Shown here piece by piece: positions 28,388-44,408 of a stretch of 48,091 nucleotides of DNA (positions within the stretch are counted from its first letter, which is position 1; the number at the start of each line of letters is the position of its first letter). The stretch covers positions 1-48,091 of the forward strand of contig CAYMLS010000002.1 in assembly GCA_964390665.1 (NCBI GenBank). The letters run 5' to 3'. The position numbers and the translations under genes were made by a program. This stretch comes from an uncultured Bacteroidales bacterium (GTDB lineage: Bacteria; Bacteroidota; Bacteroidia; Bacteroidales; UBA7960). The notes beneath the pieces were generated by a model. It saw nothing but the letters and a program-made list of their open reading frames with translations, ran no database searches and was not told where the DNA came from.

Positions 28388-29116
28388 TTATTCCTGTTTC
28401 CTGAAAATCATATACCAGTTGATATAATGAATTTTAGAATCAGGTTTTTGTAATTCTTCCTTGTCTTCCTTTGTAAGAATGGGTATCATAACATCCTGGC
28501 CTGGTTGCCAATCAGACGGGATCACGATATTATCTTTGTTTTGCTGGGTTTGCAGTGCTTTTAAAGTTCTGAGGATTTCTCCGGCATTACGACCCACCTC
28601 ATTGGGGTAAAACTGAAAAGCCCTGATCTCGTTGTCGGGATCCACGAAAAATACGCCCCTTATACTTTGCCCGTTGCCGGTTTTTGAATCAATCATACCA
28701 TAGCTGTGGGAAATCACCGCGGAACTGTCCACCACAAAAGGAAAGTCAATTTTAACCGGATTTCTGCCTTTGTAAGGGATGGATTCCATCTCTGCTTTCC
28801 AGCTTTTGTGTGAAGCCATCCTGTCTACAGAGATCACCAGCAGTTGTGTTCCCAACTCCCTGAACTCATCCTGTCGGTATGCAAGTTCCAGAATTTCTGA
28901 CGAACACACAGGAGTGAAATCACGCGGATGAGCAAAAAGAATTTTCCAACTCTCCCCAAAATCTTCCGGGAAGGAAATGGGTCCGTTGGTGGATGAACTT
29001 TTAAATGCAGGTGCCTTGGAACCGAGCAAAGGTATGCGTTGATCGTTTGCATGCTGAGCCAACGTTATGTTAAAGAAAAAGAGCATTGCCCCTAAGTTGA
29101 GAATCATATTTTTCAT
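28388..29116 (-). CDS. Peroxiredoxin (Prx6/1-Cys-like AhpC/TSA family) with an N-terminal signal peptide
   Basis: HPRDFTPVCSSE peroxidatic-Cys motif. The N-terminus MKNMILNLGAMLFFFNITLAQ looks like a cleavable signal peptide. It ends 14 nt upstream of the OM barrel gene. Confidence 0.8.
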   Translation of the reverse strand: MKNMILNLGAMLFFFNITLAQHANDQRIPLLGSKAPAFKSSSTNGPISFPEDFGESWKILFAHPRDFTPVCSSEILELAYRQDEFRELGTQLLVISVDRMASHKSWKAEMESIPYKGRNPVKIDFPFVVDSSAVISHSYGMIDSKTGNGQSIRGVFFVDPDNEIRAFQFYPNEVGRNAGEILRTLKALQTQQNKDNIVIPSDWQPGQDVMIPILTKEDKEELQKPDSKIHYINWYMIFRKQE

Positions 29117-29137
29117 GAGTGTTATTGCTTTATATCA

Positions 29138-29303
29138 TTTTATCTGTTTATAATTTTATTAAATAGATCCCCGTTCTTTTCTTACGGGGGAGCTCGCCAA
29201 CACGCTGACTGCATGTTTTACCATGTCACGAATTGTACTTCTCCGCGTGTACTTCGACATGCTCAGCAGAACTGTGTCAAAATTTTTGTCATGGCTCGGT
29301 TCA
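29138..29303 (-). repeat. Family-1 intergenic element, copy E (with a ~22-nt internal insertion)
   Basis: It has the same ends and the CCCCGT/ACGGGG hairpin as copy D. There is an extra ACTTCGACATGCTCAGCAGAAC-like segment before GTGTCAAAATTTTTGTCATGGCTCGGTTCA. It lies 22 nt upstream of the peroxiredoxin ATG. Confidence 0.85.
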
Positions 29304-29378
29304 TTTATGAACAGGATTATCGCTTTTAATCCTGATTGGGAATTGTCAGCTAAATTACTCCGCACGAAATGGCAAAGG

Positions 29379-29408
29379 GCAGGATTAATCTCGCATAGAA
29401 TTGGACAA
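29379..29408 (-). promoter_or_regulatory. Motif-3 site i (GTCCAAT-N14-ATCCTGC on the minus strand)
   Basis: The plus strand reads GGCAGGATTAATCTCGCATAGAATTGGACAAA. It lies upstream of the peroxiredoxin/OM-barrel operon, 263 nt from the ATG, or 97 nt if the 166-nt copy E is subtracted. Confidence 0.5.
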
Positions 29409-29507
29409 AAAGTGCATAGGGTGGGGAAAATGGTTTCATATTGATGAATTGCTTGCCCCTGATGCGAATAATGTGAACATTCAATGAAATAAAAATGAAG
29501 GTTTTTA

Positions 29508-30065
29508 TTATTTGACCGTCTTCCTCAACTTGATCAATCTCCCATACGTAAGTTGCCGCCATATCCATTCCACGGGTCCGAAACGGAAATACCGGAGCCA
29601 GATGGTGCTGAAGAGTATCTGCCAGATATATAAGGTTAGGACGAAAATGATAACAGAGGTATACCCAAACGACATGGCAAATCCTAATCCCACCCCGTAA
29701 AAAACAAAAATACTGATGATGCTTTGAAACAGATAATTGGAAAGGGCAGTGCGCCCCACAGCTGCAAACCAGTTCAGCCAACCACTGCGGTGGGTAACAA
29801 TGAGCGCAACGATGCCGCAATAAGCCAGTGCCATAGGTGTAAGTGCCAGGGCATTAAGCATATATTCCAGAAATTGACGCAATGCACCGTTCATAAAGCC
29901 AAACTCTATCCAGGCACGCAGCAAATTCATGGGCAATCCAATGACCAGACCCCAGAGGATGATCTTTTCAATCAGGGGAGTATTGGAAAGAATATTGTTT
30001 TCAAGTATTTGCCTGCCCACATAAATGCCGAGCAGAAACAAAAGAGTTATAAGATTGATCTTCAA
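29508..30065 (-). pseudogene. Truncated 3' copy of the DUF418/YeiB-like gene (C-terminal ~173 codons)
   Basis: Nucleotides 29519-30038 match 41571-42090 with one mismatch seen (29534 T versus 41586 C). The ORF acquires a novel 12-aa N-terminus and a 4-aa longer C-terminus. Confidence 0.85.
29519..30038. repeat. Left copy of the 520-bp direct repeat (period 12,052 bp)
   Basis: Base-by-base reading shows identity to 41571-42090 except 29534 T/C. Homology breaks sharply at both ends. Confidence 0.9.
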
Positions 30066-30357
30066 ACTTTTAAAAAAATTATAAAACTCAGGTTTTAAAT
30101 CTTCAAAAAATTAAACCCGGAAAATTATCACTCAGTAGATATGAGTTATATTTAAAGCAGTGATTTTTCCGTAGTATTTTTTACTATCACATTGTAGCAC
30201 TGTTACCTAAAATGCTAAATATCAACCATTAACCTTTGTACATAAATCATTCATTTACAGCAATTAACCATAAGTTAATTAACAATTTCTTAAGATTGAG
30301 TTTAAATCCACCAAATGATCAATATCTATTTTTACCTCTTAAAACAAATCGAACAAA

Positions 30358-30993
30358 ATGATAAAAATCATCATTGCCGACGATCATGCTGTGGTGCGCA
30401 CAGGACTTCAACTCATCTTTGATGGCACCAACGATTTGATGATTGAAGATGAATGTACCAATGGAAATGAACTCATCAGCAAGATAAAGGTAAAAGATTA
30501 TGATGTGGTGATTCTGGATATTTCTATGCCGGGAAAGGACGCCATGGATGTATTAAAAGAAATAAAGGTTTTCAAACCTAAAATTCCGGTTATCATCTTC
30601 ACCATGAATCCTGAGGAAACATTTGCCATACGATTTTTTCATAACGGAGCCTGGGCATTTATCAACAAAGAATCAGATCCATCACTTTTGGCACAAGCCA
30701 TAAGAACTGTAAACGCCGGACGTAAATTCTTCACCCAGCATCAGATGGAAATGATGAGTGCGTTGATGAGCGAAGGCAAAACCAATGAAAGCGACCACCA
30801 AAGTCTTACCGATCGAGAGTTTCAGGTGCTTCACCTTCTGGCATCCGGAGAAAGTTCAACTAATATTGCCAAAAAGCTCAATGTAAGCAAAAACACCATC
30901 AGCAATCACAGAAACAATATCCTGAAAAAAATGCAACTGAAAAACAATTCTGAACTCACCCGATACGCCATAACACACGGTATCATTAAATAA
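30358..30993 (+). CDS. NarL/FixJ-type response regulator (REC + LuxR HTH)
   Basis: 211 aa. IIIADDH and DVVILDISMPGKD mark the phospho-acceptor Asp context. The C-terminal LTDREFQVLHLLASGESSTNIAKKLNVSKNTISNHRNNILKKM is a LuxR-type HTH. Confidence 0.9.
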   Translation: MIKIIIADDHAVVRTGLQLIFDGTNDLMIEDECTNGNELISKIKVKDYDVVILDISMPGKDAMDVLKEIKVFKPKIPVIIFTMNPEETFAIRFFHNGAWAFINKESDPSLLAQAIRTVNAGRKFFTQHQMEMMSALMSEGKTNESDHQSLTDREFQVLHLLASGESSTNIAKKLNVSKNTISNHRNNILKKMQLKNNSELTRYAITHGIIK

Positions 30994-31031
30994 TTTCATT
31001 ATATCCTTTCCCGAAAAAATAAATTTCAATC

Positions 31032-33326
31032 ATGCATAAGTTTATTGTCATTTTTCTTTTCCTGAAAACGTTACTTCTTATCAGTTTGACCAATTTTCAG
31101 GAAAAAGAACATCAACTAACAGATGCAGAAAAGTCCTCATTAATACAGCAGGCAGAAGAATTGATTTTCCATCAGCCGGAGTATGCTATGAGAATAGCCC
31201 TTGATAGCGAAAAGCAATCGCGTAAAGACAACAATCACTTCATTCTGATTAAAAGTTGGTATATCCAGTCTCTTTATCACATCAATTCAGGAAATATCCA
31301 GCAGGCAAAAGGATTTGCCGAAAAGGCTATTGCCCTGTCACAGGAAATGAAATTCGACCGTTTATTGGTTGATGCCCACCTTTTAATGGGTGAGATCGTT
31401 TACAACGAAGGTCAATTCGAGAGATCAATGAAATATTTCCTGGATGCAACCAAACTTTCTAAAAAGATCAGATACAAGCAGGGTGAATCTTTTGGATTAA
31501 ATATGCTTGGTAAGTACCACTATTCTAAAGGAAATTATTCGAGAAGTCTCAACTATTTTCAGGAGGCAATGGCCATAGCCAAAGAGATCGGCAATCCAGA
31601 TCTTCAAATAAAAATACTGAACAATATTGGTAAATATTTTGAAACTCACGGCTTATTTAAAGAGGCACTGGAAAAGTATCTGTCAGGTTATGATCTAATT
31701 GATTCAACAAAAAATAAGGTTATTAAGGCAACCACCTATAATCATCTTGGAAATATTTATGACGAAACCGGAGACTATGAACAATCGCTTCGATTTCATA
31801 AAAAGGCGCTCAATCTTCGCAAGGAGATCAATTATGTGGAAGGAATGGCCAAATCAGATAAAAATATTGGTGAAGTTTTTCAGAAAAGCAACCAATTAGA
31901 TAGCGCAGAATACTATTATCAAAGGAGTTATAATACATGTAAAGCGATAAATTACAAAAAAGGCAAGATCAAAAGTCTTTTCCTTTTAGGTGAGATATAC
32001 CATCAGACAAACAGGCTAAATGAAGCTGAAAACGCCTACCTTGCATCTGTTGAAGAATCTGAGTCTATTGGATACCAGAAGGGTAACATGAAGATTTACC
32101 TGAACCTGGGAAGATTACAGAAAGAAACAGGAAATCCCCGTAAAGCAGAATATTATCTGAAAAAAGGGATAGAGAGCGCCAGGGAAGATACCTTAAACTC
32201 CATGCTCGAACCATTATACCGGGAAATAGCTCAAGTGCAAACAGACCTTCACAACTATCAAAAGTCTAACGAGTATCTCTTAAAATATGTGGCAACCAAA
32301 GAGTATATGCTGAACCATGAGAAAAACGAAAATGTGGAACAGTTGCGCATCGCTTTTGAAACCGACCTGAAAGAAAAAGAGAATAAAATACTACAGCAGG
32401 AAAACACACTGATGGCCCTGAATATGCAACGGAAAAACATACTCATACTTGTAACCGGTCTTATCCTTGTAATGCTCATTCTTTTCACCTTAATGACCTA
32501 CCAGAGGGTAAAATCCAAAGAACTCGCAAACCTTGAATTAGAAACCCTCAATAGTCATATCACACAAAAAAACGATCAACTTGCTCATCTAAACAAAGAA
32601 CTAGATCTGTCCAACAATGAAAAGGATAAATTTTTCTCCATCATAGCACACGAATTGCGCAACCCCCTTTGGTGGTTTAAGAATTTATCTGAAACACTAA
32701 GCACACGGTTCAATAATGGGGAAACCGATCGGGTAAAAATGCAAAAAGGACTGAATTCACTCAATGAGAGTGCTAAAACAGCGTTTCATCTGATCGACAA
32801 TCTGTTACAATGGTCGAAATCGCAGCTGGGCAGATTAACCTATCAACCTAAAACCTTCCGGATGAATGAATTGGTCAGGAAAACATTCAATTTGTTTCAA
32901 CCTGAACTGGAATCTAAGAATATTCGAACAAGAATTGACATTCAGGAAGATTCAATGGTTTATGTGGATCATGAGCAGATCAATACTGTGCTAAGAAATC
33001 TGATTTCCAACGCTATCAAATACACACCTGAAAATGGAACTATTGCCGTGTTTTCCGAAAAAAAAGATCAGTTTCTCAGGTTATGTATTCAGGATAACGG
33101 CATTGGTATTTCACCCGGGAACCAAAAGAAATTATTCGATCCGAAGATAGAATACACCACTCTTGGTTTGTATCAGGAAAAAGGAAGTGGGTTAGGATTG
33201 TTATTGTGCAAAGATTTCGTGGAAATGAACGGAGGCAATATTCGCATGGAAAGTGAGGAGGGAAAAGGAACCCGATTCTACTTTAGTGTTCCGCTCTCCA
33301 CAGAAAAGATACCAGAACCTGTATAA
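31032..33326 (+). CDS. TPR-repeat sensor histidine kinase
   Basis: 764 aa with the same architecture as 8693..10888. It has a signal/TM segment, TPR repeats, a TM helix (ILILVTGLILVMLILFTLMTY), a coiled coil, an H-box FFSIIAHELRNP and HATPase_c (NLISNAIKYT, DNGIGI, GSGLGL). It starts 38 nt after the response regulator. Confidence 0.88.
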   Translation: MHKFIVIFLFLKTLLLISLTNFQEKEHQLTDAEKSSLIQQAEELIFHQPEYAMRIALDSEKQSRKDNNHFILIKSWYIQSLYHINSGNIQQAKGFAEKAIALSQEMKFDRLLVDAHLLMGEIVYNEGQFERSMKYFLDATKLSKKIRYKQGESFGLNMLGKYHYSKGNYSRSLNYFQEAMAIAKEIGNPDLQIKILNNIGKYFETHGLFKEALEKYLSGYDLIDSTKNKVIKATTYNHLGNIYDETGDYEQSLRFHKKALNLRKEINYVEGMAKSDKNIGEVFQKSNQLDSAEYYYQRSYNTCKAINYKKGKIKSLFLLGEIYHQTNRLNEAENAYLASVEESESIGYQKGNMKIYLNLGRLQKETGNPRKAEYYLKKGIESAREDTLNSMLEPLYREIAQVQTDLHNYQKSNEYLLKYVATKEYMLNHEKNENVEQLRIAFETDLKEKENKILQQENTLMALNMQRKNILILVTGLILVMLILFTLMTYQRVKSKELANLELETLNSHITQKNDQLAHLNKELDLSNNEKDKFFSIIAHELRNPLWWFKNLSETLSTRFNNGETDRVKMQKGLNSLNESAKTAFHLIDNLLQWSKSQLGRLTYQPKTFRMNELVRKTFNLFQPELESKNIRTRIDIQEDSMVYVDHEQINTVLRNLISNAIKYTPENGTIAVFSEKKDQFLRLCIQDNGIGISPGNQKKLFDPKIEYTTLGLYQEKGSGLGLLLCKDFVEMNGGNIRMESEEGKGTRFYFSVPLSTEKIPEPV

Positions 33327-33601
33327 ACTTTCACTAAAAGAATTTCAATCTCCCAGACAAAAATCAGTGCACTATGAAAAAATCATTAACACACCTTTAG
33401 CACAAGCTTAAGTTTTCATTTTAAAAGTGGCGCCCGATCATCAGCAAATATTACAACGTGTTACAAATCAACATCCCTGAATAAAATAGTACTTTTCACT
33501 ATGCCTCGTCTATGAATCACACTATTGATAGATTACAGGAACCGAAATAATATTGCACTTCCAAAAACAAAATTTTCACACAAATCAAAAGACAAAGAAT
33601 T

Positions 33602-35308
33602 ATGAAAAAATTTCTACTTAATTTACTCCCCGCAGCGCTTATCTGCTTCTTGTGGGTAGAGGTATCAGCACAAAACGCCAAATTCGAAATTTACATCCAA
33701 AGTACCGGTGTTGTTTCCATCGAAGATGAAGACGACGAAGGCAACCCCATCACACTTACTTTTGATGCATCTACCGACGATGCAGAACAGGAAAATGATG
33801 AAGTTGACACAGCTTTTGACGACGATCTCGATGCAGGTTGGGAAGGTGCTCCTGAAGACCAGAACATTCTTACCATGGGATTGCGTTTCCGCGATATTTT
33901 TATCCCACAGGGTGCTACCATAGACTCTGCTTTTATCGTTTTAAACGCCCATGAAGGCAAAGATGCTGAAGACGTGGCACGTTTAACCATTTCCGCTGAA
34001 GCTGCAGACAGTGCAAGCACATTCGATGAAGAAAACTTCAACAACGAATATCTGCTCACCGACCGCCCAACAACCAATGCATCTGTATTATGGGAAGTTG
34101 CAGAAGAATGGGGCATCTGGGAATTTTACAGTACTCCTGATTTAAAAGACATTGTACAGGAAATCGTTGACCGTGATGGATGGAAAATGGGAAATCCCAT
34201 TGCATTTATCTTTGGTGGTGAAAACCAAGGACCAAGCGATGTGGACAATGCACGCGAATTCTGTTCTTATGAAAACATTGCCGACCCCGAAGATGGTGGC
34301 GACGGACAAAATCACCCCGAAAGAAGACCCAAATTTGTAGTTTATTACACTGCTCCCAGCTACGCCTATTCTTCTTACATCAAATCAACCGGATTTGTAA
34401 CCATCGAAGATGAAGACGATGATGGAAATCCTATAACCCTGACTTTCGATGCATCAACCGACGATGCTGAGCAGGAAAATGACGAAGTGGACACCGCTTT
34501 TGACGATGACCTCGATGCAGGATGGGAAGGTGCTCCCGAAGATCAGAATATTCTTACTACCGGATTACGTTTTACAAACATTTCAATACCCCAGGGCGCA
34601 ACCATTGAATCTGCTTACCTGGTTATGAATGCACACGAAGGCAAAGATGCTGAAGATGTGGCACGTATGACCATACAGGCGGAAGCAGCCGATAGTGCAT
34701 TTACTTTTGATGAAGAAAACTTCAACAACGATTATTTGCTTACCGATCGTCCGAAAACAAATGCTTCTGTCATGTGGGAAGTAGATGAAGCATGGGACAT
34801 CTGGGGTTTTTATGAATCTGTAGACTTTAGTGAGGTGATTCAGGAAGTTGTGGATCGTGAAGGTTGGAAACAGGGAAATGCCATTGCTTTGTTTTTGCAA
34901 GGTGAAAACCAGGGACCAAGCGATGTGGATAATGCCCGCGAATTCTGTTCGTATGAAAATATCGCCGATCCTGAAGATGGCGGTGACGGACAAAACCACC
35001 CCGAAAGAAGACCAAGACTGGTAATCAACTTCAGTCTGCCTACCGTTGGTGGAACACAAACCATCACACTATCAGATTCTGATATTACTGTATTCCCCAA
35101 TCCTTCCAATGGAATAATCAACGTTGAGATTAAAAACCAAAAACAGGCACAGATATTCATTTATGATCTTACCGGAAAAGTGGTTGCTTCTGATTTTGCA
35201 GGATCAACTCTGAATCAGATCAATGTGAGCAACCTCAACAAAGGTATTTATGTTCTCAAAGCCATACAGGGCGAAAATGCTTATGTTCAGAAAATTGTTG
35301 TTGAATAA
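33602..35308 (+). CDS. T9SS-secreted acidic protein with two 228-aa tandem repeats
   Basis: Signal peptide ending VSAQ. Repeat 1 is aa 31-258 and repeat 2 is aa 259-486, highly similar. The C-terminal ~75 aa (ITVFPNPSNGIINVE...GIYVLKA...QKIVVE) matches the T9SS type A sorting-domain pattern. Confidence 0.8.
   Translation: MKKFLLNLLPAALICFLWVEVSAQNAKFEIYIQSTGVVSIEDEDDEGNPITLTFDASTDDAEQENDEVDTAFDDDLDAGWEGAPEDQNILTMGLRFRDIFIPQGATIDSAFIVLNAHEGKDAEDVARLTISAEAADSASTFDEENFNNEYLLTDRPTTNASVLWEVAEEWGIWEFYSTPDLKDIVQEIVDRDGWKMGNPIAFIFGGENQGPSDVDNAREFCSYENIADPEDGGDGQNHPERRPKFVVYYTAPSYAYSSYIKSTGFVTIEDEDDDGNPITLTFDASTDDAEQENDEVDTAFDDDLDAGWEGAPEDQNILTTGLRFTNISIPQGATIESAYLVMNAHEGKDAEDVARMTIQAEAADSAFTFDEENFNNDYLLTDRPKTNASVMWEVDEAWDIWGFYESVDFSEVIQEVVDREGWKQGNAIALFLQGENQGPSDVDNAREFCSYENIADPEDGGDGQNHPERRPRLVINFSLPTVGGTQTITLSDSDITVFPNPSNGIINVEIKNQKQAQIFIYDLTGKVVASDFAGSTLNQINVSNLNKGIYVLKAIQGENAYVQKIVVE
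33692..35059 (+). repeat. Intragenic tandem duplication, 2 x 684 bp
   Basis: Y31 (33692) aligns with Y259 (34376), giving a period of 684 nt. There are long identical peptide runs (NPITLTFDASTDDAEQENDEVDTAFDDDLDAGWEGAPEDQNILT) despite many third-position nucleotide differences. Confidence 0.9.
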
Positions 35309-35328
35309 TTTCCTTAACAAATAAATAC

Positions 35329-35376
35329 AATCTGCCTGATGAAAGCAACAGGTCTTTCTCAGGCAGATTTTCTCTT
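35329..35376 (+). terminator. Rho-independent terminator after the T9SS protein gene
   Basis: 11-bp stem AATCTGCCTGA/TCAGGCAGATT (35329-35339 / 35359-35369) followed by TTTCTCTT. Confidence 0.65.
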
Positions 35377-35457
35377 ATCGACCCAATATTCCATCAAATT
35401 ACACTGCAAACAAAAACCCTTAACTACACGAATTAACGCAAAACCTCAACTCAAGTC

Positions 35458-38349
35458 ATGATCAGGCAATTCACAAATTCAATCATCCTTTTTTGCTTTT
35501 TATTGTTTGGGAATATATTCCCGGCTATGGCACAAAACAATACTATTACCGGTAAGGTAATCGATGCTGTATCAGGCGAGCCACTGCCCGGTGCCGCCAT
35601 CCGTATTGAAAACACCACCCTTGGTACAACCACCGATCTCGATGGAAATTTCAAGCTGTCCAACATCAGAACCAATACAACCACCATTTTGGTTTCCTAC
35701 GTAAGTTACCAGACAGCACGGGTGGAACTTGAATTTGATAAAGAAAGAGTATTGGATTTCACCATTGAACTGGCAAACGAATCCACCAACCTGGATGAAG
35801 TGATCATTACCGGAAATGCCTCGGGACAGGTAAAAGCAATGTTGGATCAGAAAACCGCAATCAATATCAAAAATATAGTTTCCTCTGAGCAAATTCAGTT
35901 GTTTCCTGATATGAATGCTGCAGAAGCCGTAAACAGGATACCCGGGATTTCACTTCAGCGCGATCAGGGCGAAGGGCGTTATGTACAATTAAGGGGAACA
36001 CCGCCGGAACTGACCAACTTCAACATCAACGGTGAGCAAATCCCTTCACCCGAGGGTGATGTAAGATACGTAGGGCTGGATATCATCTCAGCCGACCAGA
36101 TCGAAAGAATTGAAATATCAAAAGTGCTTACTCCCGACATGGATGCAGATGGTATCGGGGGAAACGTAAACATCATCACCAAAAGTGCAGAAAGTGAAAT
36201 CCCTGACATACAGGCTTCCTTATCAGGCGGGTACAACAATCTCAGACAAACAGAAAATGCACAGTTACAATTTTCTTACGGGCAAAGAGTCAATAAATTC
36301 GGATTTAAGGTAAACAGTAACTACTATGTGAATAACCAGGGATCAGACAACATGGAATTTGAATATGCCAAAGGCCCCTTCTTTAACACCGGAGACCAGC
36401 AAGATGGAGTGGATAACTACAAAGTTCATTACCGGGAGATGCAATTAAGGCATTACAATATTACACGCGAAAGAATTGGTGTGAGTGCCAGCCTGGATTA
36501 TCGCTTTAATCCCAATTCTCTGGTTTACCTGCGTGGCATGTTCAACAGGTTTGGTGATGATGAAATCAGAAGAAGGGTTATATTTACCCTCGACGACCCT
36601 CTGAATGAAAACGTATATCTCTATGGCGGAGTTGACAGGGATGTGCGCGAGAGAACCAAAATACAACAAATCAGCACTGTTAATTTAGGTGGAGAGCACG
36701 ATACCAGATTCTTAAAAATTGATTATGAAGCAGCAGTTTCTCAGGCAACAGATAATCAACCCGATCGGGTGCAAGCCCTTTTCGACAATCCCGGACAAGC
36801 GATTAATATTCAATTTGACAATTCAGACCCGGATTTCCCCGTTCCGCTCTTTGCCAATGAAATTGACACCATCAATGCAACCAATTACGAAGAATACGAA
36901 TTTAAAGAATTGATCATGTCCGATGGTTTAGTGGTTGACAGGAACTTATCAGGAAGACTCAACATCGAGGTTCCTTATGAGTTTGCCAACCAATCAGGTT
37001 ATTTCAAATTCGGTGGAAAATTCAGATTTAAGGAGAAAACACGAGATTTCAATGCTGACGCTTATTCAGCGTATTTCACTTCTTCCAATACTTACCCTGG
37101 TACAGGGCAAACCCTCACATTGCCCGGACTAAGTGACGGTTTTGTGGATAATAATTTACTCGGTCAGGGATACACTTTAGACTTTATTCCTTCACCTCAA
37201 ATGATGGTCGATTTCCATGAATACAATTCACACTTTTTTATCATTGACAGAACCGGGGGCAAAAATGAAACTTTCGGACAGGACTACTTAGCCAGGGAAG
37301 ATATATATGCTGCCTATGGTATGCTCAGACACGATATAGGGGATCTTATGATCATCGGAGGTTTACGGTATGAAAGAACATTTGTGGATTACGAAGCCCG
37401 GTCGGTTCTACTTGACAGGGGGAGATTCGACAGATTGGATACCGTATCCGATAGCAGAACCCACGACTTTTGGCTGCCACAGTTTCAGATGAGATATGCC
37501 TTCAATGACAATTTTAATTTACGATTGGGTTACACACATACTTTTGCCCGCCCCAATTTCAGCGATGTACTCCCCTACCGGCAAATCGACAGGGATGAAG
37601 TGGAATTTGGAAATCCTGATTTAATTTACCCCACGGCACAAAACGTGGATATTTTACTTGAAAACTATCTGAAAGAAGGCGGCATTATCTCGGGCGGATT
37701 GTTCTACAAAAAGATTGATGATTTTATATTCTATTTTGAACGATACGCGAGGGAAGGGGATGTTCAGGATGTTTCACTCAACCTGTATTCCATTCCCATT
37801 AATGGTATAGAAGCATTTGTTTATGGTGCTGAGGTTCAGACACAGTCGAAACTGCATTTTCTTCCGGGTTTTCTTGCCAACTTCGGTGTATTTCTCAATT
37901 ACACCTACACTTATTCGGAGGCACTCATCAACAAAAGACAGCCTGCCAACTATACCGATGCAAGGGTGACATTCCTGGGTGACTACATAGCCGATTTTAC
38001 TATTGAAGGTGAAACAGAACAGATTGAACTACCCGGTCAGGCACCCCATGCCGCAAACCTGGCCTTTTTCTTTGATAATGATATTTTCTTTGCTAAAATT
38101 GCAGCCAATTACCATGATGATTTTCTTCATGAATTAGGTGCAGATTCAGACCTCGACCGGTATTACCATAGTTTGTGGCACCTTGATTTCACAACCAGTT
38201 ACCGGATCAATGACAACATTACCGTGTTTGCCGATCTGATTAACCTCACCAATGCACCCCTGAAATTTTATCTGGGATCACGCGACCGCATCTTACAACA
38301 GGAATACTATTCATGGTGGGGCAGAACGGGTGTGAGAATGAATTTCTAA
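35458..38349 (+). CDS. TonB-dependent receptor (CarboxypepD_reg + plug + 22-strand barrel type), no SusD partner
   Basis: 963 aa. It has a signal peptide, ITGKVIDAVSGEPLPGAAIRIENTTLGTTTDLDGNF, the plug motif NRIPGISLQRDQGEGRYVQLRG, and a C-terminal aromatic residue (...GVRMNF). The next gene is not SusD-like. Confidence 0.88.
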   Translation: MIRQFTNSIILFCFLLFGNIFPAMAQNNTITGKVIDAVSGEPLPGAAIRIENTTLGTTTDLDGNFKLSNIRTNTTTILVSYVSYQTARVELEFDKERVLDFTIELANESTNLDEVIITGNASGQVKAMLDQKTAINIKNIVSSEQIQLFPDMNAAEAVNRIPGISLQRDQGEGRYVQLRGTPPELTNFNINGEQIPSPEGDVRYVGLDIISADQIERIEISKVLTPDMDADGIGGNVNIITKSAESEIPDIQASLSGGYNNLRQTENAQLQFSYGQRVNKFGFKVNSNYYVNNQGSDNMEFEYAKGPFFNTGDQQDGVDNYKVHYREMQLRHYNITRERIGVSASLDYRFNPNSLVYLRGMFNRFGDDEIRRRVIFTLDDPLNENVYLYGGVDRDVRERTKIQQISTVNLGGEHDTRFLKIDYEAAVSQATDNQPDRVQALFDNPGQAINIQFDNSDPDFPVPLFANEIDTINATNYEEYEFKELIMSDGLVVDRNLSGRLNIEVPYEFANQSGYFKFGGKFRFKEKTRDFNADAYSAYFTSSNTYPGTGQTLTLPGLSDGFVDNNLLGQGYTLDFIPSPQMMVDFHEYNSHFFIIDRTGGKNETFGQDYLAREDIYAAYGMLRHDIGDLMIIGGLRYERTFVDYEARSVLLDRGRFDRLDTVSDSRTHDFWLPQFQMRYAFNDNFNLRLGYTHTFARPNFSDVLPYRQIDRDEVEFGNPDLIYPTAQNVDILLENYLKEGGIISGGLFYKKIDDFIFYFERYAREGDVQDVSLNLYSIPINGIEAFVYGAEVQTQSKLHFLPGFLANFGVFLNYTYTYSEALINKRQPANYTDARVTFLGDYIADFTIEGETEQIELPGQAPHAANLAFFFDNDIFFAKIAANYHDDFLHELGADSDLDRYYHSLWHLDFTTSYRINDNITVFADLINLTNAPLKFYLGSRDRILQQEYYSWWGRTGVRMNF

Positions 38350-38556
38350 AAAGTTATTGACTTATCAAACAATAAAAAATGATCAACTCTTTTTAAAATA
38401 ATGCAGATATAATAAGAATTTCTTCAGCGAATAAATCAGAAAGATACTTTTGCTTAAGATAATTCAATCATTTTTCATCAGGATTATAGAAAAATACTTT
38501 CTAAATATTATAAAAGAATCATCAAAAATGTAACAGGCACACTAAAACACCTTACC

Positions 38557-40329
38557 GTGAAATATAACAATACCACAAAAAAATTCCTGACATTAATTGG
38601 CAGTATTTTGATTTTAAACATCTTGCTGCCCCCAGAGCAAACAAATGCTCAAATATTAGAAAACGAACCAGTTTACTCAAACGATCGTGTTACTGCATTT
38701 AAAGTACGCTCAGATTTTAATGCAGAACTTGATAAGAATACAGGCTGGTCAGCTGAAATTAACCAAACAAAACCTCAAACAGTCGACACCCCTTTTCGTA
38801 TCCGTTTTGAAGTAGAAAGTGACACTACAGTTCATCGACGTCAATATAGTCTGCAATACCGATGGAATAACAGTTCATGGACTTACCTTGAGGCGCATGA
38901 TTTTCCATATCCCTCATCTGCATCTCCAACCATAAGTATCGTTAGTTGTGAGGCATATTTCATGGGTGAAACAGCAGAAGATCTGATTCATGTATCAACA
39001 CAACCAGCAAACCCCGGAGCAGGTATCAGCTTGTCACCTGTAACTCCGGGGTGGTGGCCAACCCCACGCGATGGAGCATCAGCAGAATGGGAATTCGCAC
39101 TGGTAGTTCGCAGATGGGCTGATGGTCCCAAACTTGTAAAAGATGGTGACAAGATTTCGCTTAGACTGGTTGATCATTTAGGTCACCCACTCAAAGGCTT
39201 TATACCTGAATTCACGGTCACTATTCCTGATGCACACCTCGGTGGAACTTTCGTTGAAACACCTGCACGAATTGGCCCGTATGAAAATAGCAACGGGGAT
39301 TTATATTTCATGATGGAACCAACAGAAACAGACAATGTTTTCATGATGGTAAAATCAACCGACAAGGGTAAAACATGGTTTGAAGTTGATGCTGAAAACC
39401 GTCCGGAAAAAGGTGATTTGGAAGGTGTTGGTTCTGTGGTAGACAATAAAGGAGTTATTCATATTGTTCATCAAATATCTGAAGCAGTTTACCACCATGC
39501 CTTTGCCATGTCAGAAAATTCAGATTGCAATGATTGCTGGGTGGTAAAAGACAAACTAATTACAGAACATGAAGATCCTCCAACTCAGGCGGCAGACATC
39601 GTCCTTCGTCCGGATGGAAGTCTTGTAACTGTTTTTTGCAACAGTGACAAGATACAATACAGCATTCTGAAACCAAGCGGAAACTGGAGTAAACCAATTG
39701 ATCTATCACACGATTATCCGTTTGGATTTACAAATCCATCCATTACTTCCTTAGCTGATGGCACAATAGACATAGCCTTTAAAAGCATAGACGGGGCAGG
39801 CTGGCACAGGCAATTGTTACCCGATAATTCACTCACACCTGCGCAACAATTTGCCAGCAATCTTGGAACAACCGAATATGAAAACATTTCCATATTACCG
39901 TTGATTTACCTTCCTGGAAAGCAAACTACCGTTGCGATTTTCCGTCAAACTGACAAGTTTCTGTATTTATCTGCCAGATCAAACAATAATCTTTGGTCAG
40001 AACCCGTAAAAATATCTGACAAGCCTGTGATTACTAACGCTGTAGACTCTGATCAAACAGGTGCTGATGCTGTGGCATGGGGTGATAAAGTTGTTTTATC
40101 ATACATAGATAAAGAAGACAGAAACATATACTTTTCGGTGATAGAAAATTTTGCAGAAATACCTTCTGCAAGGCTGCTAATTCAAGATATTGAAGGTTCC
40201 TGGATCAGAGGAAATATCCTGAACCATCAGGATGGATCAGGTATTTACGGCATTATCTATGATGCCGGAAGCAAAGGGGGTTCGGGTTATAACAAGTATT
40301 TTTATGTGGAGATGAGGCGAGAAAAGTAA
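38557..40329 (+). CDS. Secreted hypothetical protein with a BNR/Asp-box (sialidase-fold-like) C-terminal region
   Basis: GTG start. Signal peptide FLTLIGSILILNILLPPEQTNAQ. There is one clear Asp-box, KSTDKGKTW (SxDxGxTW). The N-terminal ~230 aa domain was not recognised. Confidence 0.5.
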   Translation: MKYNNTTKKFLTLIGSILILNILLPPEQTNAQILENEPVYSNDRVTAFKVRSDFNAELDKNTGWSAEINQTKPQTVDTPFRIRFEVESDTTVHRRQYSLQYRWNNSSWTYLEAHDFPYPSSASPTISIVSCEAYFMGETAEDLIHVSTQPANPGAGISLSPVTPGWWPTPRDGASAEWEFALVVRRWADGPKLVKDGDKISLRLVDHLGHPLKGFIPEFTVTIPDAHLGGTFVETPARIGPYENSNGDLYFMMEPTETDNVFMMVKSTDKGKTWFEVDAENRPEKGDLEGVGSVVDNKGVIHIVHQISEAVYHHAFAMSENSDCNDCWVVKDKLITEHEDPPTQAADIVLRPDGSLVTVFCNSDKIQYSILKPSGNWSKPIDLSHDYPFGFTNPSITSLADGTIDIAFKSIDGAGWHRQLLPDNSLTPAQQFASNLGTTEYENISILPLIYLPGKQTTVAIFRQTDKFLYLSARSNNNLWSEPVKISDKPVITNAVDSDQTGADAVAWGDKVVLSYIDKEDRNIYFSVIENFAEIPSARLLIQDIEGSWIRGNILNHQDGSGIYGIIYDAGSKGGSGYNKYFYVEMRREK

Positions 40330-40445
40330 AGGTAACAGACCCAGGAAAACATTTCAATGTAGATATCATAAACAGTTGTTGTTAATTTAACACATTGATA
40401 AATCAAGATGATTAGTATCAGCAAACCAAAATTAAAGATAAACCT

Positions 40446-41402
40446 ATGACACTAACTCTGAAGTCAGCAATTGTTATATTTACGCTGATCTTATTTGCTT
40501 GCAATGCCAATCAGGACAGAGACAACCATAAACCCTATTCTAAGGATTCTATCGCAGTTGCATTGGAAGATATGTTGGAATTCTCAATTTCAACTTCACA
40601 TAACGAAAATGATACTGTACTTTTAAGGATAGCATTCATAGGCGATGCTGAACCAAAACCCCTTCCAGAGTTTCCAGGAATGAAAGGTGCTGTTCAACAT
40701 ATCAATAAACTTACAAAATCAACTCCGGTTGATTTTGTAATAGGCATAGGTGATATTGCCCACAAAGGTACGAAAATCCAATACGAGGAAGCAACAAAGG
40801 TTTTACAAATGCTTGATATTCCCATCTACCCCATTATGGGCAATGAAGAACATGAAAGTACAATTGAAAGGTATCTGCAGTATGCCAAAAAGTGGAATGA
40901 AAATATACAAAAAACAAGCTATGTAATCAATCATGAAAAGGTAGCATTTGTTCTCGCATCCCCCGATCATGGTCGTGATTTTAACGACAGTGGAGTTTTA
41001 TGGATTGCAGAGCAACTAAAAAGACTGGCTCCAAAACCTGTATTTCTTATAGTGCATGGGGCACAAACTGGTGTTTATCCTGAAAACAATGACAAGGGCA
41101 TTAGCAACCAACTTTTTAAAAAACAAGTAATCGGGCAACCAAATCTTTGCGCGGTTATTTCTGGCGACCTACACATGGACATGGATAGAGTAAATCATTC
41201 AAAAAAAATTGATCAGATTCACTACCTGCATATTCCCGCTTTGGAACGCACAAAAATACCCGACAAAACAAATCATACGCCAATGTTTCGCGTTATGACA
41301 ATCTCAAAAAATGGGGCAGTGAAAATAGACACTTATACGGTAGGTAAAGATTCTTCAATGGAAGAACATCAATACATCTTTTCACAGAAGCTCCAACCCT
41401 AA
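40446..41402 (+). CDS. Lipoprotein metallophosphoesterase (calcineurin-like)
   Basis: Lipobox LILFAC. Metallophosphoesterase motifs are in order: FIGDAEP, GIGDIAHKG (GDxxxxG), GNEEH (GNHE variant), VHG, GDLHMD. Confidence 0.78.
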   Translation: MTLTLKSAIVIFTLILFACNANQDRDNHKPYSKDSIAVALEDMLEFSISTSHNENDTVLLRIAFIGDAEPKPLPEFPGMKGAVQHINKLTKSTPVDFVIGIGDIAHKGTKIQYEEATKVLQMLDIPIYPIMGNEEHESTIERYLQYAKKWNENIQKTSYVINHEKVAFVLASPDHGRDFNDSGVLWIAEQLKRLAPKPVFLIVHGAQTGVYPENNDKGISNQLFKKQVIGQPNLCAVISGDLHMDMDRVNHSKKIDQIHYLHIPALERTKIPDKTNHTPMFRVMTISKNGAVKIDTYTVGKDSSMEEHQYIFSQKLQP

Positions 41403-41570
41403 GATTGGATAATTGCTGCAATCAAATACGTATTGTTTAGCATAGGAGAAGATCTCCACATTCTATTCATAGATAACTGACAATTCAAGGTAAAATCTTA
41501 AAATATACCGAAAAAAGGAATCAATATCCTAAAAATAAGAAAACGCTTTTTGCCACTATAAACGGTAACA

Positions 41571-42090
41571 TCTACCTCAACTTGACCAATCTCCCATACG
41601 TAAGTTGCCGCCATATCCATTCCACGGGTCCGAAACGGAAATACCGGAGCCAGATGGTGCTGAAGAGTATCTGCCAGATATATAAGGTTAGGACGAAAAT
41701 GATAACAGAGGTATACCCAAACGACATGGCAAATCCTAATCCCACCCCGTAAAAAACAAAAATACTGATGATGCTTTGAAACAGATAATTGGAAAGGGCA
41801 GTGCGCCCCACAGCTGCAAACCAGTTCAGCCAACCACTGCGGTGGGTAACAATGAGCGCAACGATGCCGCAATAAGCCAGTGCCATAGGTGTAAGTGCCA
41901 GGGCATTAAGCATATATTCCAGAAATTGACGCAATGCACCGTTCATAAAGCCAAACTCTATCCAGGCACGCAGCAAATTCATGGGCAATCCAATGACCAG
42001 ACCCCAGAGGATGATCTTTTCAATCAGGGGAGTATTGGAAAGAATATTGTTTTCAAGTATTTGCCTGCCCACATAAATGCCGAGCAGAAA
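41571..42090. repeat. Right copy of the 520-bp direct repeat
   Basis: See the left copy. This copy is the 3' end of the intact DUF418-like gene. Confidence 0.9.
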
Positions 42091-42870
42091 AAGGGCAAGG
42101 ACTTTGAATATTCTGCCTTCCATAAGGATTCCAGACAATCGCAGAAGAGGCATGAAAGCATTTATTTGAATCCATTCCTTGAAATTGGTGATCGAGTAAT
42201 AAGCAGCCATCGTGAATTCAGTATCTCCATTTTTTGAGGCATCTTCTGAAAGCACACGACTTGCCAGGTCAATGAATCTCTCCCTCAGGAATTCAGGATA
42301 AAAAGTATCGGTAAGAAACATAAAAACCCAGTGAACCACTGGCATCAACAGCAGTATTGCTGCCCATACCAACAACTTTTTGTTGGAAAAATGGCGAAAG
42401 AAGACCAAAAGAAATCCCAGAACCGCATAGAGCGTAAGAATATCACCCAACCAAATGAAAAACAAATGAATTCCACCAATAAGAAGCAATCCCAACATTC
42501 TTTTCAGGAAAAAGGGTACAAAAACCCGGTCTTCCTTATTCATTCGCTGATACTGCAGGGCAAACCCAATTCCGAAAAGAATGGAGAAAATGGAATAAAA
42601 CTTTCCATCCACAAAAATGAATGCAAGCATTTGCAATATATAATCAAGGGAAGCAAATCTCATTTGTGCAATTTCATCTTCAGGAATAAAATACTCACCA
42701 GAAAGATATCTGATATTGGCAACAAAGATGAACAGAATAGCAATGCCGCGTAAAATGTCGAGGTATTGAATTCGTTCTTTGTTGGGTACCGGGATATCGG
42801 GATGGTCGGTGGTGAAAAGTCGGATGTTGACTTTTGATGATTCATTATTGGAAACTATAGGGGTTGTCAT
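41572..42870 (-). CDS. DUF418/YeiB-like multi-pass membrane protein (intact copy)
   Basis: 432 aa. It has RIQYLDILRGIAILFIFVANI, typical of the DUF418/YeiB family, and about 9 TM segments. The 3' 520 bp is duplicated at 29519-30038. Confidence 0.75.
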   Translation of the reverse strand: MTTPIVSNNESSKVNIRLFTTDHPDIPVPNKERIQYLDILRGIAILFIFVANIRYLSGEYFIPEDEIAQMRFASLDYILQMLAFIFVDGKFYSIFSILFGIGFALQYQRMNKEDRVFVPFFLKRMLGLLLIGGIHLFFIWLGDILTLYAVLGFLLVFFRHFSNKKLLVWAAILLLMPVVHWVFMFLTDTFYPEFLRERFIDLASRVLSEDASKNGDTEFTMAAYYSITNFKEWIQINAFMPLLRLSGILMEGRIFKVLALFLLGIYVGRQILENNILSNTPLIEKIILWGLVIGLPMNLLRAWIEFGFMNGALRQFLEYMLNALALTPMALAYCGIVALIVTHRSGWLNWFAAVGRTALSNYLFQSIISIFVFYGVGLGFAMSFGYTSVIIFVLTLYIWQILFSTIWLRYFRFGPVEWIWRQLTYGRLVKLR

Positions 42871-42971: not shown

Positions 42972-44408
42972 TCAATAGTTTAAATACAACGCCCCGGCAA
43001 TAAACAGCCCGGCCACTGCAGTAAGAATAAGAAAGAGCGGCCAGATAAACTTTACCCACTTTTCAAACGGTACACCGGCAATGGCCAGTGATGCCATTAA
43101 TACTCCATTGGTTGGGATGATCATGTTGGAGAACCCATCGCCCGAGATAAAGATCAACACTGCTGTTTGCCTGGAAATATCCAATAGGTCAGATAATGGA
43201 ACCATCAGTGGCATGGAAACCATGGCCTGACCGGAAGCTGAAGGGATGAAAAAGTTCAGCATCATTTGAAATGCATACATCCCCTGTGCCGAAACTAAAG
43301 GGTGCTTTCCTTCAAGCAGCAGAGATGTACGGTAGAGAATGGTGTCAATGATCATCCCTTCTTCCATCACCACCTGAATACCCCTTGCAAAACCTACAAT
43401 GAGCGCAGGTACAAGCATTACCTCCAGTCCTTTTATAAAACTCTTCATGGCCTGGTCTCCTGTCATGCCGCTGATCAGAATGGTGCAAACACCCACGGCA
43501 AAAAAACCGCCTGTCATTTCAATAAGCCCCCACCCCATGGTTTGAACAGCAAAGAGGATCATGGCGAACAATACCAAACCGGATACAGCAATTCCTATAT
43601 GTTTTTTGGTGGGTTTATGACCTCCATCCACCATATGGTTGTCTTCCACCGTAAAGGGATCATCGGGCATCACAGAACGAGACTTGTCCCTTTTCACCCT
43701 TTTCCCGTAAATAACCAAAAAAGCAAAGGCAATTGTAACACACACAATAAAGAAGACAATGCGCAAGCCGATACCACTGCCAATGGGTAACTCGGCAATT
43801 CTTTGCGCGATCTGAACAGTAAAAGGATTGGTAATGGCTGTTGACCAGCCTACGCCGGTGGCTAAGGTAAGCAGACCAAGTCCGAACAAACGGTCGTAAC
43901 CAAGCCGTTTTGAGATCAGTAAAAATATAGGTATCAATGGTATAAACTCTGCACCCATTCCCATAAAAGTAGCAGCAAATGCAATAAAAATAAAAAGAAT
44001 AAAACTGAGCAGCAGTGGAGAACCTCCAAATTTGTAAAGCAAGAGGTTGATAAAAACATTGATCGTGCCCGTTTGCTGTATCAAAGTGAGCACAGCTCCG
44101 ATGATAAACACAAAAAAGATCAGTGGAGCAGCAGAGTTCAAGCCTTTGGGGATGGACGAAAACAAACCCAACAGACTTATGGGGGTTGATTTACCGGGCA
44201 CCTCCTCACCCAGTACCACACCCTGAACTGAAAAATGCCTGGGTATCTGTTGGTAACTTCCCGGAACAACCAATGTTTGCTGTACATTGTCCACTTCACG
44301 TGTGATTCGTTCAAACTGTCCGCTGGGAACAAAATAGGTCATGATACTGCTAAACAGGATAATTGCCGATAAAAAAATAAAAACGTGGGGTATTTTCAAA
44401 TTTTTCAT
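42972..44408 (-). CDS. YfcC-family (DcuC-like anaerobic C4-dicarboxylate/basic amino acid carrier superfamily) transporter
   Basis: 478 aa polytopic protein. The N-terminus KIPHVFIFLSAIILFSSIMTYFVPSGQFER is characteristic of YfcC-type proteins. Confidence 0.7.
   Translation of the reverse strand: MKNLKIPHVFIFLSAIILFSSIMTYFVPSGQFERITREVDNVQQTLVVPGSYQQIPRHFSVQGVVLGEEVPGKSTPISLLGLFSSIPKGLNSAAPLIFFVFIIGAVLTLIQQTGTINVFINLLLYKFGGSPLLLSFILFIFIAFAATFMGMGAEFIPLIPIFLLISKRLGYDRLFGLGLLTLATGVGWSTAITNPFTVQIAQRIAELPIGSGIGLRIVFFIVCVTIAFAFLVIYGKRVKRDKSRSVMPDDPFTVEDNHMVDGGHKPTKKHIGIAVSGLVLFAMILFAVQTMGWGLIEMTGGFFAVGVCTILISGMTGDQAMKSFIKGLEVMLVPALIVGFARGIQVVMEEGMIIDTILYRTSLLLEGKHPLVSAQGMYAFQMMLNFFIPSASGQAMVSMPLMVPLSDLLDISRQTAVLIFISGDGFSNMIIPTNGVLMASLAIAGVPFEKWVKFIWPLFLILTAVAGLFIAGALYLNY

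Follow-up and report, generated by a model that had tools for sequence, protein, structure and literature searches.

An 11.5-kb nutrient-uptake gene cluster inserted between two direct copies of a DUF418 gene end in an uncultured Bacteroidales bacterium

The DNA considered here comprises 48,091 nucleotides from an uncultured Bacteroidales bacterium, and this whole stretch is called the window below. Within a housekeeping region it contains a block of about 11.5 kb with six open reading frames (the cargo, 30039-41570) that is bordered on both sides by a copy of the 3' end of a DUF418/YeiB-like gene. The copies are direct repeats at 29519-30038 and 41571-42090, both on the reverse strand, and a comparison within the 48-kb window confirms the offset of exactly 12,052 bp given in an earlier note on this DNA. 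The repeat amounts to 516 nt at 99.6% identity with an exact core of 504 nt (29535-30038), and the identity falls to background right outside either end. An exact repeat of 504 nt cannot have arisen by chance in 48 kb. The earlier note had reported one differing position, but there are two, T at 29522 versus A at 41574 and T at 29534 versus C at 41586. Both lie no more than 16 nt from the stop-codon end, which has a p value of about 0.002 for randomly placed mismatches.

The right copy provides the last 172 codons and the TAG stop (41572-41574) of a DUF418/YeiB-like membrane protein gene (41572-42870, reverse strand). The gene matches Pfam PF04235 and is indeed intact, encoding 432 amino acids of which full-length homologues cover 97-100%. 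In the left copy, AAG stands in place of TAG and four further codons follow (KTVK, then a stop), all within an open reading frame at 29508-30065 on the reverse strand. This copy had been described as an orphan 3' fragment; it does hold the last 172 codons of the gene, but it is part of a chimeric reading frame with an upstream region of its own rather than a bare orphan. Among 47 relatives, 45 run past the residues KLR of DUF418, and the next residue is K in most. Judged by these alignments, the left copy, ending in IKLRKTVK and a stop, is the ancestral C-terminal tail, and the stop codon of the right copy, which ends in VKLR and TAG, is derived. The sequence differs directly after each copy, with ancestral DNA following the left one and cargo following the right one.

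The flanks can be assigned in the same way. The intergenic DNA beyond the left copy (29117-29507, reverse strand) matches the DUF418-downstream DNA of relatives in blastn, at 71.5% over 179 nt in L052 and at 81% over 58 nt in L011, and an alignment with relatives reveals an operator-like conserved motif in it at 29352-29409. It leads to DUF418's ancestral downstream neighbour, a peroxiredoxin gene (28388-29116, reverse strand; AhpC/TSA with a 1-Cys Prx C-terminal domain by Pfam). A search of this intergenic DNA against Rfam returned no matches; the segment 29123-29313 is one copy of a repeat family of about 170 nt. On the other side of the intact gene, Pfam identifies genes for a DcuC-type carrier, an MFS transporter and a SnoaL-like protein (42972-46299, reverse strand), which form the ancestral upstream synteny block and have the identical order in L011.

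The corresponding site without the cargo, for which the earlier note had proposed to look, is found in five relatives (L010, L011, L052, L084 and L086), where the peroxiredoxin / 815-aa barrel genes come immediately after DUF418. L011 also keeps the DcuC-MFS-SnoaL side, with a single DUF418 gene between DcuC and peroxiredoxin. The 11.5 kb are therefore an insertion. It is important to note that the five relatives are family-level ones, with DUF418 proteins 62-73% identical, since the collections searched hold no genome of the same species. Genome and metagenome contig scans for DUF418 gave nothing above 73% amino acid identity, the best homologue is 70% identical, and the cluster at 90% identity contains the window's own proteins only. 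Exact-protein look-ups with the intact DUF418 protein and with one of the cargo proteins, the BNR protein described below, gave no matches. A C-terminal DUF418 fragment in the middle of contig L053 was considered as a second case and rejected as a different kind of truncation, because it adjoins a remnant of an IS256-family transposase.

These observations bear on one alternative, namely that the structure is an old duplication or the remnant of a tandem duplication, as had been suggested, and that gene conversion has maintained the near identity. A near-identical block of 504 nt with mismatches at one edge only could be the pattern of a conversion tract, but the opposite edge of the repeat is perfectly sharp. 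A tandem array of gene end and cargo would furthermore put the cargo-type 3' end after both copies, and the remnant is disfavoured because the ancestral tail and the downstream DNA belong to the left copy and not to the right one. The relatives have one DUF418 gene between DcuC and peroxiredoxin, and their DUF418 paralogues are merely 25-33% identical. We thus regard this explanation as very unlikely.

We now consider the cargo, whose six genes all lie on the forward strand. Ahead of them lies a bidirectional regulatory spacer (30066-30357), in which an alignment with the loci L174, L176 and L177 reveals the conserved boxes TAGTAyTTTTTACTAT and TAATTAACAATTTCTTAA. A LuxR/GerE-type response regulator by Pfam (30358-30993) and a TPR-containing, FimS-like sensor histidine kinase (31032-33326) come next, followed by a T9SS-sorted secreted protein with an internal 684-nt repeat (33602-35308). 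The fourth gene encodes a TonB-dependent receptor (35458-38349) of the TonB-Xanth-Caul subfamily (461.8 bits, cutoff 310) and not of the SusC type (SusC/RagA 78 bits, cutoff 368). The fifth encodes a BNR/sialidase-like propeller protein of 590 amino acids (38557-40329); the protein itself has no Pfam match and a PDB sequence search with it found none, and homologues of it have PF13088 and are annotated as sialidase family. A metallophosphoesterase gene (40446-41402) and a 168-nt spacer (41403-41570) complete the block, and among the fetched loci this spacer is similar only to an identical Logan contig, L170. A reading of the cargo as a polysaccharide utilization locus with a SusC/SusD pair was rejected, as the receptor scores far below the SusC/RagA cutoff and its neighbour is BNR/sialidase-like and not SusD.

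Relatives of the cargo sit in ordinary chromosomal contexts. The module of response regulator, histidine kinase, T9SS protein and TonB receptor occurs beside a phytase or lipoprotein gene in L174, L176 and L177, and the module of BNR protein and metallophosphoesterase occurs in L161-L164, in no case with DUF418 nearby. The response regulator is 90% identical at the amino acid level to that of L174 and 65-70% to those of L176/L177, and the T9SS protein is 98.9% identical to those of L174/L175, two loci that lack the BNR propeller gene. At the nucleotide level, the central cargo genes are 93-98% identical to those of another lineage, as against 70-80% for their neighbours, which suggests a very recent exchange with that lineage. 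By this comparison, the cargo, consisting of phosphorus/nutrient-uptake genes, is identified as a fragment of a two-component/T9SS/TonB locus of the phytase type, i.e. a phosphorus-acquisition locus, that is found elsewhere without DUF418.

How the fragment is joined to the gene end can be seen at its left side. At the joint 30038/30039, about nine codons from the start of a divergent gene in the lipoprotein/phytase position (30039-30065, reverse strand; TTG AAG ATC AAT CTT ATA ACT CTT TTG) are fused in frame to DUF418 codon 261. This remnant is collinear with the intergenic region and lipoprotein gene start of L174; the call is based on this one relative and on a modest match of 15 of 27 nt (p about 0.0025 versus random 27-mers). 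The collinearity with L174 reaches the joint at 30039 and places the start codon at a conserved distance from the response regulator gene, 293 nt here compared to 288 in L174, 265 in L176 and 306 in L177. The resulting chimeric reading frame (29508-30065, reverse strand) has 185 codons, made up of the lipoprotein-gene codons, DUF418 codons 261-432 and the ancestral KTVK with its stop; it is carried as protein P0252 in the annotation of the source record, and a sigma70-like promoter match precedes it (30106 to 30078). The right joint lies between about 41570/41571 and 41574/41575.

Since nine or so lipoprotein codons are fused in frame to the interior of DUF418, the left joint is illegitimate. 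Together with the occurrence of the cargo locus elsewhere without DUF418, this indicates that the joints at least are the work of illegitimate recombination and not of a dedicated mobile element. Both observations, the in-frame left joint and the nature of the cargo as a fragment of a foreign locus, go beyond the earlier note.

No enzyme of a mobile element was detected either. A Pfam scan of the six cargo genes and all flanking reading frames in the 48 kb found no integrase, transposase, recombinase or conjugation domain, and intergenic gaps are at most 319 nt. The sole tRNA gene in the window (Leu, 11116-11198) is 18 kb away; on both counts the earlier reading of the sequence holds. Apart from the 516-nt gene segment, searches for terminal direct or inverted repeats and att-like sequences at the cargo ends gave nothing above shuffled controls. 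A megablast search of PLSDB gave no match that would indicate a plasmid origin, and genes for replication or partition are absent from the cargo. The compositional comparison that had been proposed as a sign of mobility revealed no difference, with a GC content of 39.37% in the cargo versus 39.38% in the flanks and a tetranucleotide distance inside the range of other 11.5-kb segments. Features of a transposon or IS composite are absent as well, as there are no transposase and no terminal inverted repeats and the duplication is 516 nt long.

The layout nevertheless resembles that left by elements that integrate into gene ends. The element e14 and phage 21 integrate into the 3' end of icd and supply a replacement end, and CIMEs are integrase-less derivatives of such integrative elements. 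As in these cases, the element-proximal 3' end keeps the target intact and the native 3' end is displaced to the far side. The insertion could accordingly be a decayed site-specific element, either CIME-like or a 3'-end-targeting island with a replacement end, and moved in trans by a recombinase whose gene lies elsewhere. However, there is no recombinase, phage or ICE gene in or near the cargo, no short att core, and no deviation from the native composition. The repeat is about 5-10 times longer than in those elements and, at its near identity, far exceeds usual att sequences, and the cargo is a chromosomal nutrient-uptake locus. Its left joint interrupts a neighbouring gene of an ordinary metabolic locus within the codons for the signal peptide. 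A decayed element is thus extremely unlikely.

The next point to be addressed is whether the assembled structure is physically present. Logan contigs assembled from the same series of samples agree with the window sequence and reproduce the right junction; a search of the literature with the SRA run accessions found nothing. One of them, L170 (SRR15425356, an independent short-read assembly), is 100% identical to positions 40153-41616, and its end lies precisely 30 nt (k-1) inside the exact repeat. This is the pattern expected where two paths converge at a repeat, and it supports the right junction. Among the independent Logan contigs, none crosses the repeat or the joint at 30038/30039, and L171 begins at 30068, 30 nt short of the joint.

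An alternative is a mixed population, in which chromosomes with the empty site coexist with a 12,052-bp unit of gene end plus cargo that is separate from them and either circular or amplified in tandem, and the assembler has threaded the two into one path. The window is an entire contig of an assembly from an uncultured organism, a repeat that two paths enter and two paths leave fits an integrated state and a circle with an empty site equally well, and the start of L171 is odd. Because the Logan unitigs break at the repeat, short reads cannot separate the two states. On the other hand, the two copies have distinct 3' ends, each tied to its own flank, and a stable free circle is unlikely for a cargo that has neither replication or partition genes nor a plasmid relative. 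We consider the mixed population unlikely. In either case, the unit of gene end plus cargo is real, since an assembler can traverse the joint between the cargo end and the DUF418 interior only if that joint is physical.

A related option is that a 12,052-bp circle recurs between conspecific cells as a self-propagating cassette and integrates by host homologous recombination, where the captured DUF418 3' end with its own stop would stand in for an attachment site and leave the target gene intact. The repeat, as read from the sequence, covers whole codons up to the stop and would give DUF418 a functional end, the very recent exchange of the central cargo genes would fit, and experimental single-crossover insertion-duplications of similar size exist. 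But this is one instance only, with no second genome carrying the cassette at DUF418 among the collections searched, and the cargo contains no transfer function and has its relatives in ordinary chromosomal contexts. Such propagation would thus be improbable. We give an equally slim chance to the idea of a plug-in cassette, i.e. a nutrient-uptake locus with a captured 516-nt gene end that enters and leaves conspecific chromosomes by host homologous recombination alone, the captured end repairing the target gene and the displaced end being re-expressed as a chimeric, two-component-regulated DUF418-domain protein.

The explanation that we favour, and which we hold to be probable, is a recent, integrase-free duplicative insertion by way of illegitimate joints and/or a Campbell-type single crossover. 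Most likely, the insertion arose by the cell's own recombination and not through an enzyme of a mobile element. In this scheme, an 11.5-kb fragment would have been cut out of a phytase-type phosphorus-acquisition locus and linked to the DUF418 gene of the chromosome through two joints that are not site-specific, one connecting codon 9 or so of the lipoprotein gene, in frame, with codon 261 of DUF418 and the other lying at the DUF418 stop codon. With H denoting the 516-nt gene segment, the product would read 5' DUF418, H, cargo, H, ancestral tail, peroxiredoxin. The DUF418 gene would stay complete, ending four codons earlier at a new stop, and the 3' end that it originally had would persist, displaced, as the chimeric reading frame. 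The duplication of H could come about in two ways. Either a 12,052-bp circle of H and cargo integrates by one RecA-type crossover, or the two ends of the fragment attach at points separated by 516 nt, as might happen with sister chromosomes or a staggered break. Through RecA-type recombination, the two copies would be reduced to one, with the cargo leaving as a circle and the site returning to its ancestral arrangement.

The architecture agrees with the Campbell-type route. The order of 3' fragment, cargo and intact gene anticipated for such an integration is what is found, with the 172-codon fragment on the left and the 432-aa gene on the right. The repeats correspond to one uninterrupted stretch of the target gene, of which one copy is intact and one truncated, the intact 3' end is proximal to the insert, and the site is uninterrupted in relatives. 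The clustering of the mismatches in the last 16 nt is, however, not predicted by a simple scheme in which the cell duplicates its own DNA that then drifts. To account for it, one has to assume a donor allele, a short patch of imperfect homology where the joint formed, or selection favouring the new stop.

Comparable events are known from experiments. Homology-facilitated illegitimate recombination (HFIR), or double illegitimate recombination, occurs in natural transformation or conjugation, with examples in Acinetobacter and Streptococcus. In E. coli, it has been described in conjugation (PMC3240628). As in the present case, the incoming DNA, foreign or ectopic, is linked at points that lack homology and have little microhomology or none, and one side may be anchored by host DNA; HFIR, however, usually deletes recipient DNA between anchor and joint, whereas here 516 nt are duplicated. 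Among E. coli conjugation recombinants, single crossovers of circularised DNA gave duplications of 109-950 bp of the locus at the lacZ end (PMC3240628). The likeness to such Campbell-type insertion-duplications is close: direct repeats of the target gene flank the insert, one copy is complete and one truncated, the length of 516 nt is in the published range, the process requires no enzyme from an element, and recombination between the repeats would reverse it. The present case differs in being a natural event in an uncultured member of the Bacteroidota, in that the insert is an 11.5-kb fragment of a metabolic locus and not a plasmid, in that the circle is hypothetical, and in that both joints between gene segment and cargo are themselves illegitimate. 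A third parallel is the transformation-triggered merodiploidy of S. pneumoniae, where interchromatid pairing yields tandem duplications of 100-900 kb between pre-existing IS-derived repeats (PMC3784515). There too, one fragment bridging two sister chromatids creates a repeat-bordered duplication, which offers a route by which the ends could land 516 nt out of order, but here heterologous cargo was inserted and just 516 nt were duplicated.

The insertion is instructive, yet it opens no new class of system. It represents a clean natural case of a metabolic gene cluster that moved into a conserved housekeeping region without mobile-element machinery, with the duplication of the 3' end keeping the target gene whole. 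The long direct repeats left by the event would make the gain reversible, and the chimeric reading frame is a by-product. Insertions of this kind escape island-finding tools that rely on integrases, tRNAs or composition, and they may add to the patchy spread of phosphorus- and nutrient-acquisition loci in the Bacteroidota.

Two direct repeats, at 29519-30038 and 41571-42090, were located by a repeat search and compared base by base. Their offset is 12,052 nt, as stated in the earlier note, which had found a single mismatch; there are two (29522 T/41574 A and 29534 T/41586 C), both in the final 16 nt at the low-coordinate end. The exact core spans 504 nt (29535-30038 in the left copy), and beyond either repeat end the identity is at background level at once. 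The right copy forms the final 172 codons of an intact DUF418/YeiB-like gene, 41572-42870 (-), which encodes 432 aa, matches PF04235 (the YeiB equivalog match is weak) and is covered to 97-100% by full-length homologues. The TAG stop codon of this gene begins with the mismatch at 41574. In the left copy AAG stands in place of TAG, and the reading frame is four codons longer (KTVK*). At its upstream end it passes the repeat by nine codons and starts with a TTG at 30065, giving an ORF of 185 aa that is an annotated protein in the source record.

Judged by gene order in relatives, the 11.5 kb between the copies, called the cargo, is an insertion. No conspecific sequence was found in the collections searched: the closest homologue of DUF418 reaches 70% identity, and its 90% cluster consists only of the window's two proteins and an unrelated 51-aa entry. 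The relatives with an empty site are accordingly at the family level. In one of them (contig L011) the order SnoaL-MFS-DcuC-DUF418-peroxiredoxin-barrel proteins is that of the window, uninterrupted. In four others (L010, L084, L086 and L052), DUF418 is followed by the peroxiredoxin gene, which in the window lies left of the left copy at 28388-29116 (-). In the relatives the two genes are separated by some 80 nt to 1.6 kb, and L052 has an additional gene there. In another MAG (L053, 4287-5119) a DUF418 gene breaks off near residue 237, next to an IS256-family (Transposase_mut) remnant; this is an independent, IS-associated truncation in the same gene family.

Which of the two DUF418 ends is original can be read from the homologues. 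Among 47 close homologues, 45 extend past '...KLR', usually with K next (consensus IKLRKP...). The left copy, ending in IKLRKTVK*, matches this pattern, while VKLR* of the right copy is the shortest end in the set. Furthermore, the sequence adjoining the left copy (29352-29518) shows homology to DNA immediately downstream of DUF418 in L052 (71.5% over 179 nt) and L011 (81% over 58 nt), whereas for the 168 nt after the right copy no match was found in the fetched loci. On these sequence comparisons, the left fragment is the original DUF418 3' end in its original context, and the end of the right copy is derived. The remnant of a tandem duplication of repeat plus cargo, offered by the earlier note as an alternative, is disfavoured, since cargo-type sequence would then be expected after both copies, and the left copy has the ancestral context.

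The DNA after the left copy also contains a conserved non-coding motif of about 60 nt with two GATTTRTCC half-sites about 21 nt apart (29352-29409, and again at 46400-46435). It recurs in L011 (11447-11504), L007 (2889-2954), L084 (7370-7427) and L052 (~640-714), and in several genera it precedes peroxiredoxin and SnoaL-like genes. The motif resembles an operator for a transcription factor, which might control a redox regulon.

The spacer beside the left repeat holds one of five copies in 48 kb of an intergenic repeat of about 170 nt: 7641-7816 (+), 17762-17925 (-), 19256-19337 (+, partial), 25727-25895 (+) and 29123-29313 (+). The family also occurs in L161 (1613-1633). Its core CTGACTRCATGTTTTRYCATG has 5 matches against 0 expected, and it carries a TTGACA/TATAAT-like box and a hairpin whose stem varies by copy and still pairs (CCCCGT/ACGGGG versus CTCTCGTT/AACGAGAG). 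The copies lie in both orientations and in varied contexts, including the nrfH-nrfA spacer, and no Rfam match was found; the family may consist of small-RNA genes or be a REP/MITE-like element. A DUF805b RNA motif (Rfam RF02914, 51.8 bits) occurs at 47774-47809 (-), close to the contig's right end.

At the right joint, homology stops 1-4 nt from the DUF418 stop codon. The joint may lie after AGG, with TAG supplied by the cargo end. It may also lie after AAGA, with AAG mutated to TAG later; without that change the DUF418 frame would run 17 more codons into the cargo. A third possibility is that the last 16 nt (14/16 identical) represent a short imperfect-homology joining patch, or a donor allele. 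If two substitutions had arisen at random after the duplication, the chance of both lying in the terminal 16 nt would be p about 0.002; drift is therefore a less likely source of the mismatches than the joint or selection.

The left joint, 30038/30039, is characterized by comparison with loci that carry the first cargo genes, a LuxR-type response regulator (30358-30993, +) and a TPR/FimS-like histidine kinase (31032-33326, +). The spacer between the regulator and its divergent neighbour is collinear, with conserved boxes, across the window, L174, L176 and L177, and in the window this collinearity runs on to 30039. The TTG at 30065 is 293 nt from the regulator start, compared to 288 (L174), 265 (L176) and 306 nt (L177) for the neighbour's start codon. 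The nine codons of the window (TTG AAG ATC AAT CTT ATA ACT CTT TTG; MKINLITLL) match the lipoprotein start of L174 (ATG AAA ATT GCT GTC TTA TCA GTT TTT; MKIAVLSVF) at 15/27 nt (p about 0.0025 versus random 27-mers). These three observations indicate that 30038/30039 is likely an illegitimate in-frame joint of about codon 9 of the neighbour gene to DUF418 codon 261, with one informative relative. The cargo was then likely excised from a larger locus with loss of the gene in the phytase position. The left copy, a 3' fragment of DUF418 as previously described, is thus not a bare orphan but likely a chimeric ORF that inherits the upstream region of the neighbour gene. A predicted sigma70-like match upstream of it (30106->30078) is weak evidence.

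After the regulator and the kinase, the cargo encodes a T9SS-sorted protein, a TonB-dependent receptor (Xanth-Caul subfamily, not SusC), a 590-aa BNR/sialidase-like protein and a metallophosphoesterase. The first four genes form a module that adjoins a divergently transcribed beta-propeller phytase gene in L176 and L177 and a divergent lipoprotein gene in L174. In L161-L164 the BNR and metallophosphoesterase genes form a module that is preceded by another receptor and an inorganic pyrophosphatase. Since the neighbours vary case by case and DUF418 adjoins none of these modules, the cargo is a composite locus, from its domain content presumably for phosphorus/organophosphate acquisition.

L174 and L175 (Logan SRR17165155/54) are mosaic relative to the window: the regulator/kinase region is 58-81% and the metallophosphoesterase 75% identical in nucleotides, but for the T9SS and receptor genes nucleotide identity is 93-98% (98.9% and 96.7% in amino acids). 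This mosaic pattern points to very recent homologous exchange inside the locus, and the similar segment (33528-37400) has sharp bounds. The BNR/sialidase-like gene, which lies between receptor and metallophosphoesterase (region 38346-40577), is missing in L174/L175, where those genes are 45 nt apart; by this comparison the cargo is itself modular. The T9SS gene contains an internal repeat (33691-33990/34375-34674, 684-nt period, 80% identity), which indicates tandem duplication of a domain. Another TPR histidine kinase, at 8693-10888 (+) beside the nrfHA genes, is 29% identical to that of the cargo and is a distant paralogue, not a duplicate.

No integrase, transposase, relaxase or phage genes were found in the cargo or in the rest of the 48,091-bp window, in agreement with the earlier note. 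The intergenic gaps of the cargo are at most 319 nt, and the sole tRNA of the window (Leu, 11116-11198) is 18 kb away. Between the two ends of the cargo, neither direct nor inverted repeats exceed the shuffled expectation, and PLSDB gave no match. Nor does composition set the cargo apart (GC 39.37% versus 39.38% elsewhere; undistinctive tetranucleotide usage), so the donor is compositionally indistinguishable, i.e. the same genome or a close relative.

The window, a complete contig in an NCBI assembly from an uncultured organism, is a core chromosomal region, encoding trigger factor, ClpP, ClpX, Fmt, RibH and NrfHA, and contigs 99.9-100% identical to parts of it occur in independent per-run short-read assemblies (Logan; SRR15425352, -55, -56 and -57). 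One of these, L170, spans 40153-41616 and thereby reproduces the junction of cargo and right repeat; it stops exactly 30 nt (k-1) inside the exact repeat, which shows that another path joins at this point in the same sample. Among the independent Logan contigs, none spans the inner joint 30038/30039. L171, which covers the regulator gene, starts at 30068, exactly 30 nt beyond the repeat instead of the same distance within it; a gap in coverage, variation between strains or a different junction in that sample, at 30067/30068, could account for this. Since an assembler crosses 30038/30039 only with reads containing the joint, the physical unit of repeat and cargo is very likely real. It could be either integrated as drawn or a circle alongside empty-site chromosomes.

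As the earlier note proposed, a single homologous crossover of the chromosome with a 12,052-bp circle, consisting of the 516-nt DUF418 segment and the cargo, would yield the observed structure. In E. coli conjugation experiments, single-crossover events that duplicate 109-950 bp of the homologous segment outnumber true HFIR (PMC3240628); the 516 nt duplicated here are within that size range. The circle would itself require both illegitimate joints beforehand. An equally economical route would be direct insertion of a linear fragment with its two ends joined 516 nt apart, which could occur across sister chromosomes (cf. interchromatid events, PMC3784515) or at a staggered or replicating site. 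Both routes are host-recombination events. Of the earlier interpretation, the insertion is borne out by the empty site in relatives, the mobile element is not, as mobility genes are lacking, and the 12,052-bp circle is unproven. That the unit is a recurrent cassette with no integrase, for which a captured gene end serves as surrogate attachment site, appears improbable.

The event is a new instance of an already known kind, insertion-duplication by host recombination. From general RecA biology, recombination between the 516-nt repeats would remove the cargo as a circle and restore the DUF418-peroxiredoxin arrangement. What makes the case instructive is that the target gene is preserved, that a chimeric ORF would have been created, and that the gain would be reversible.
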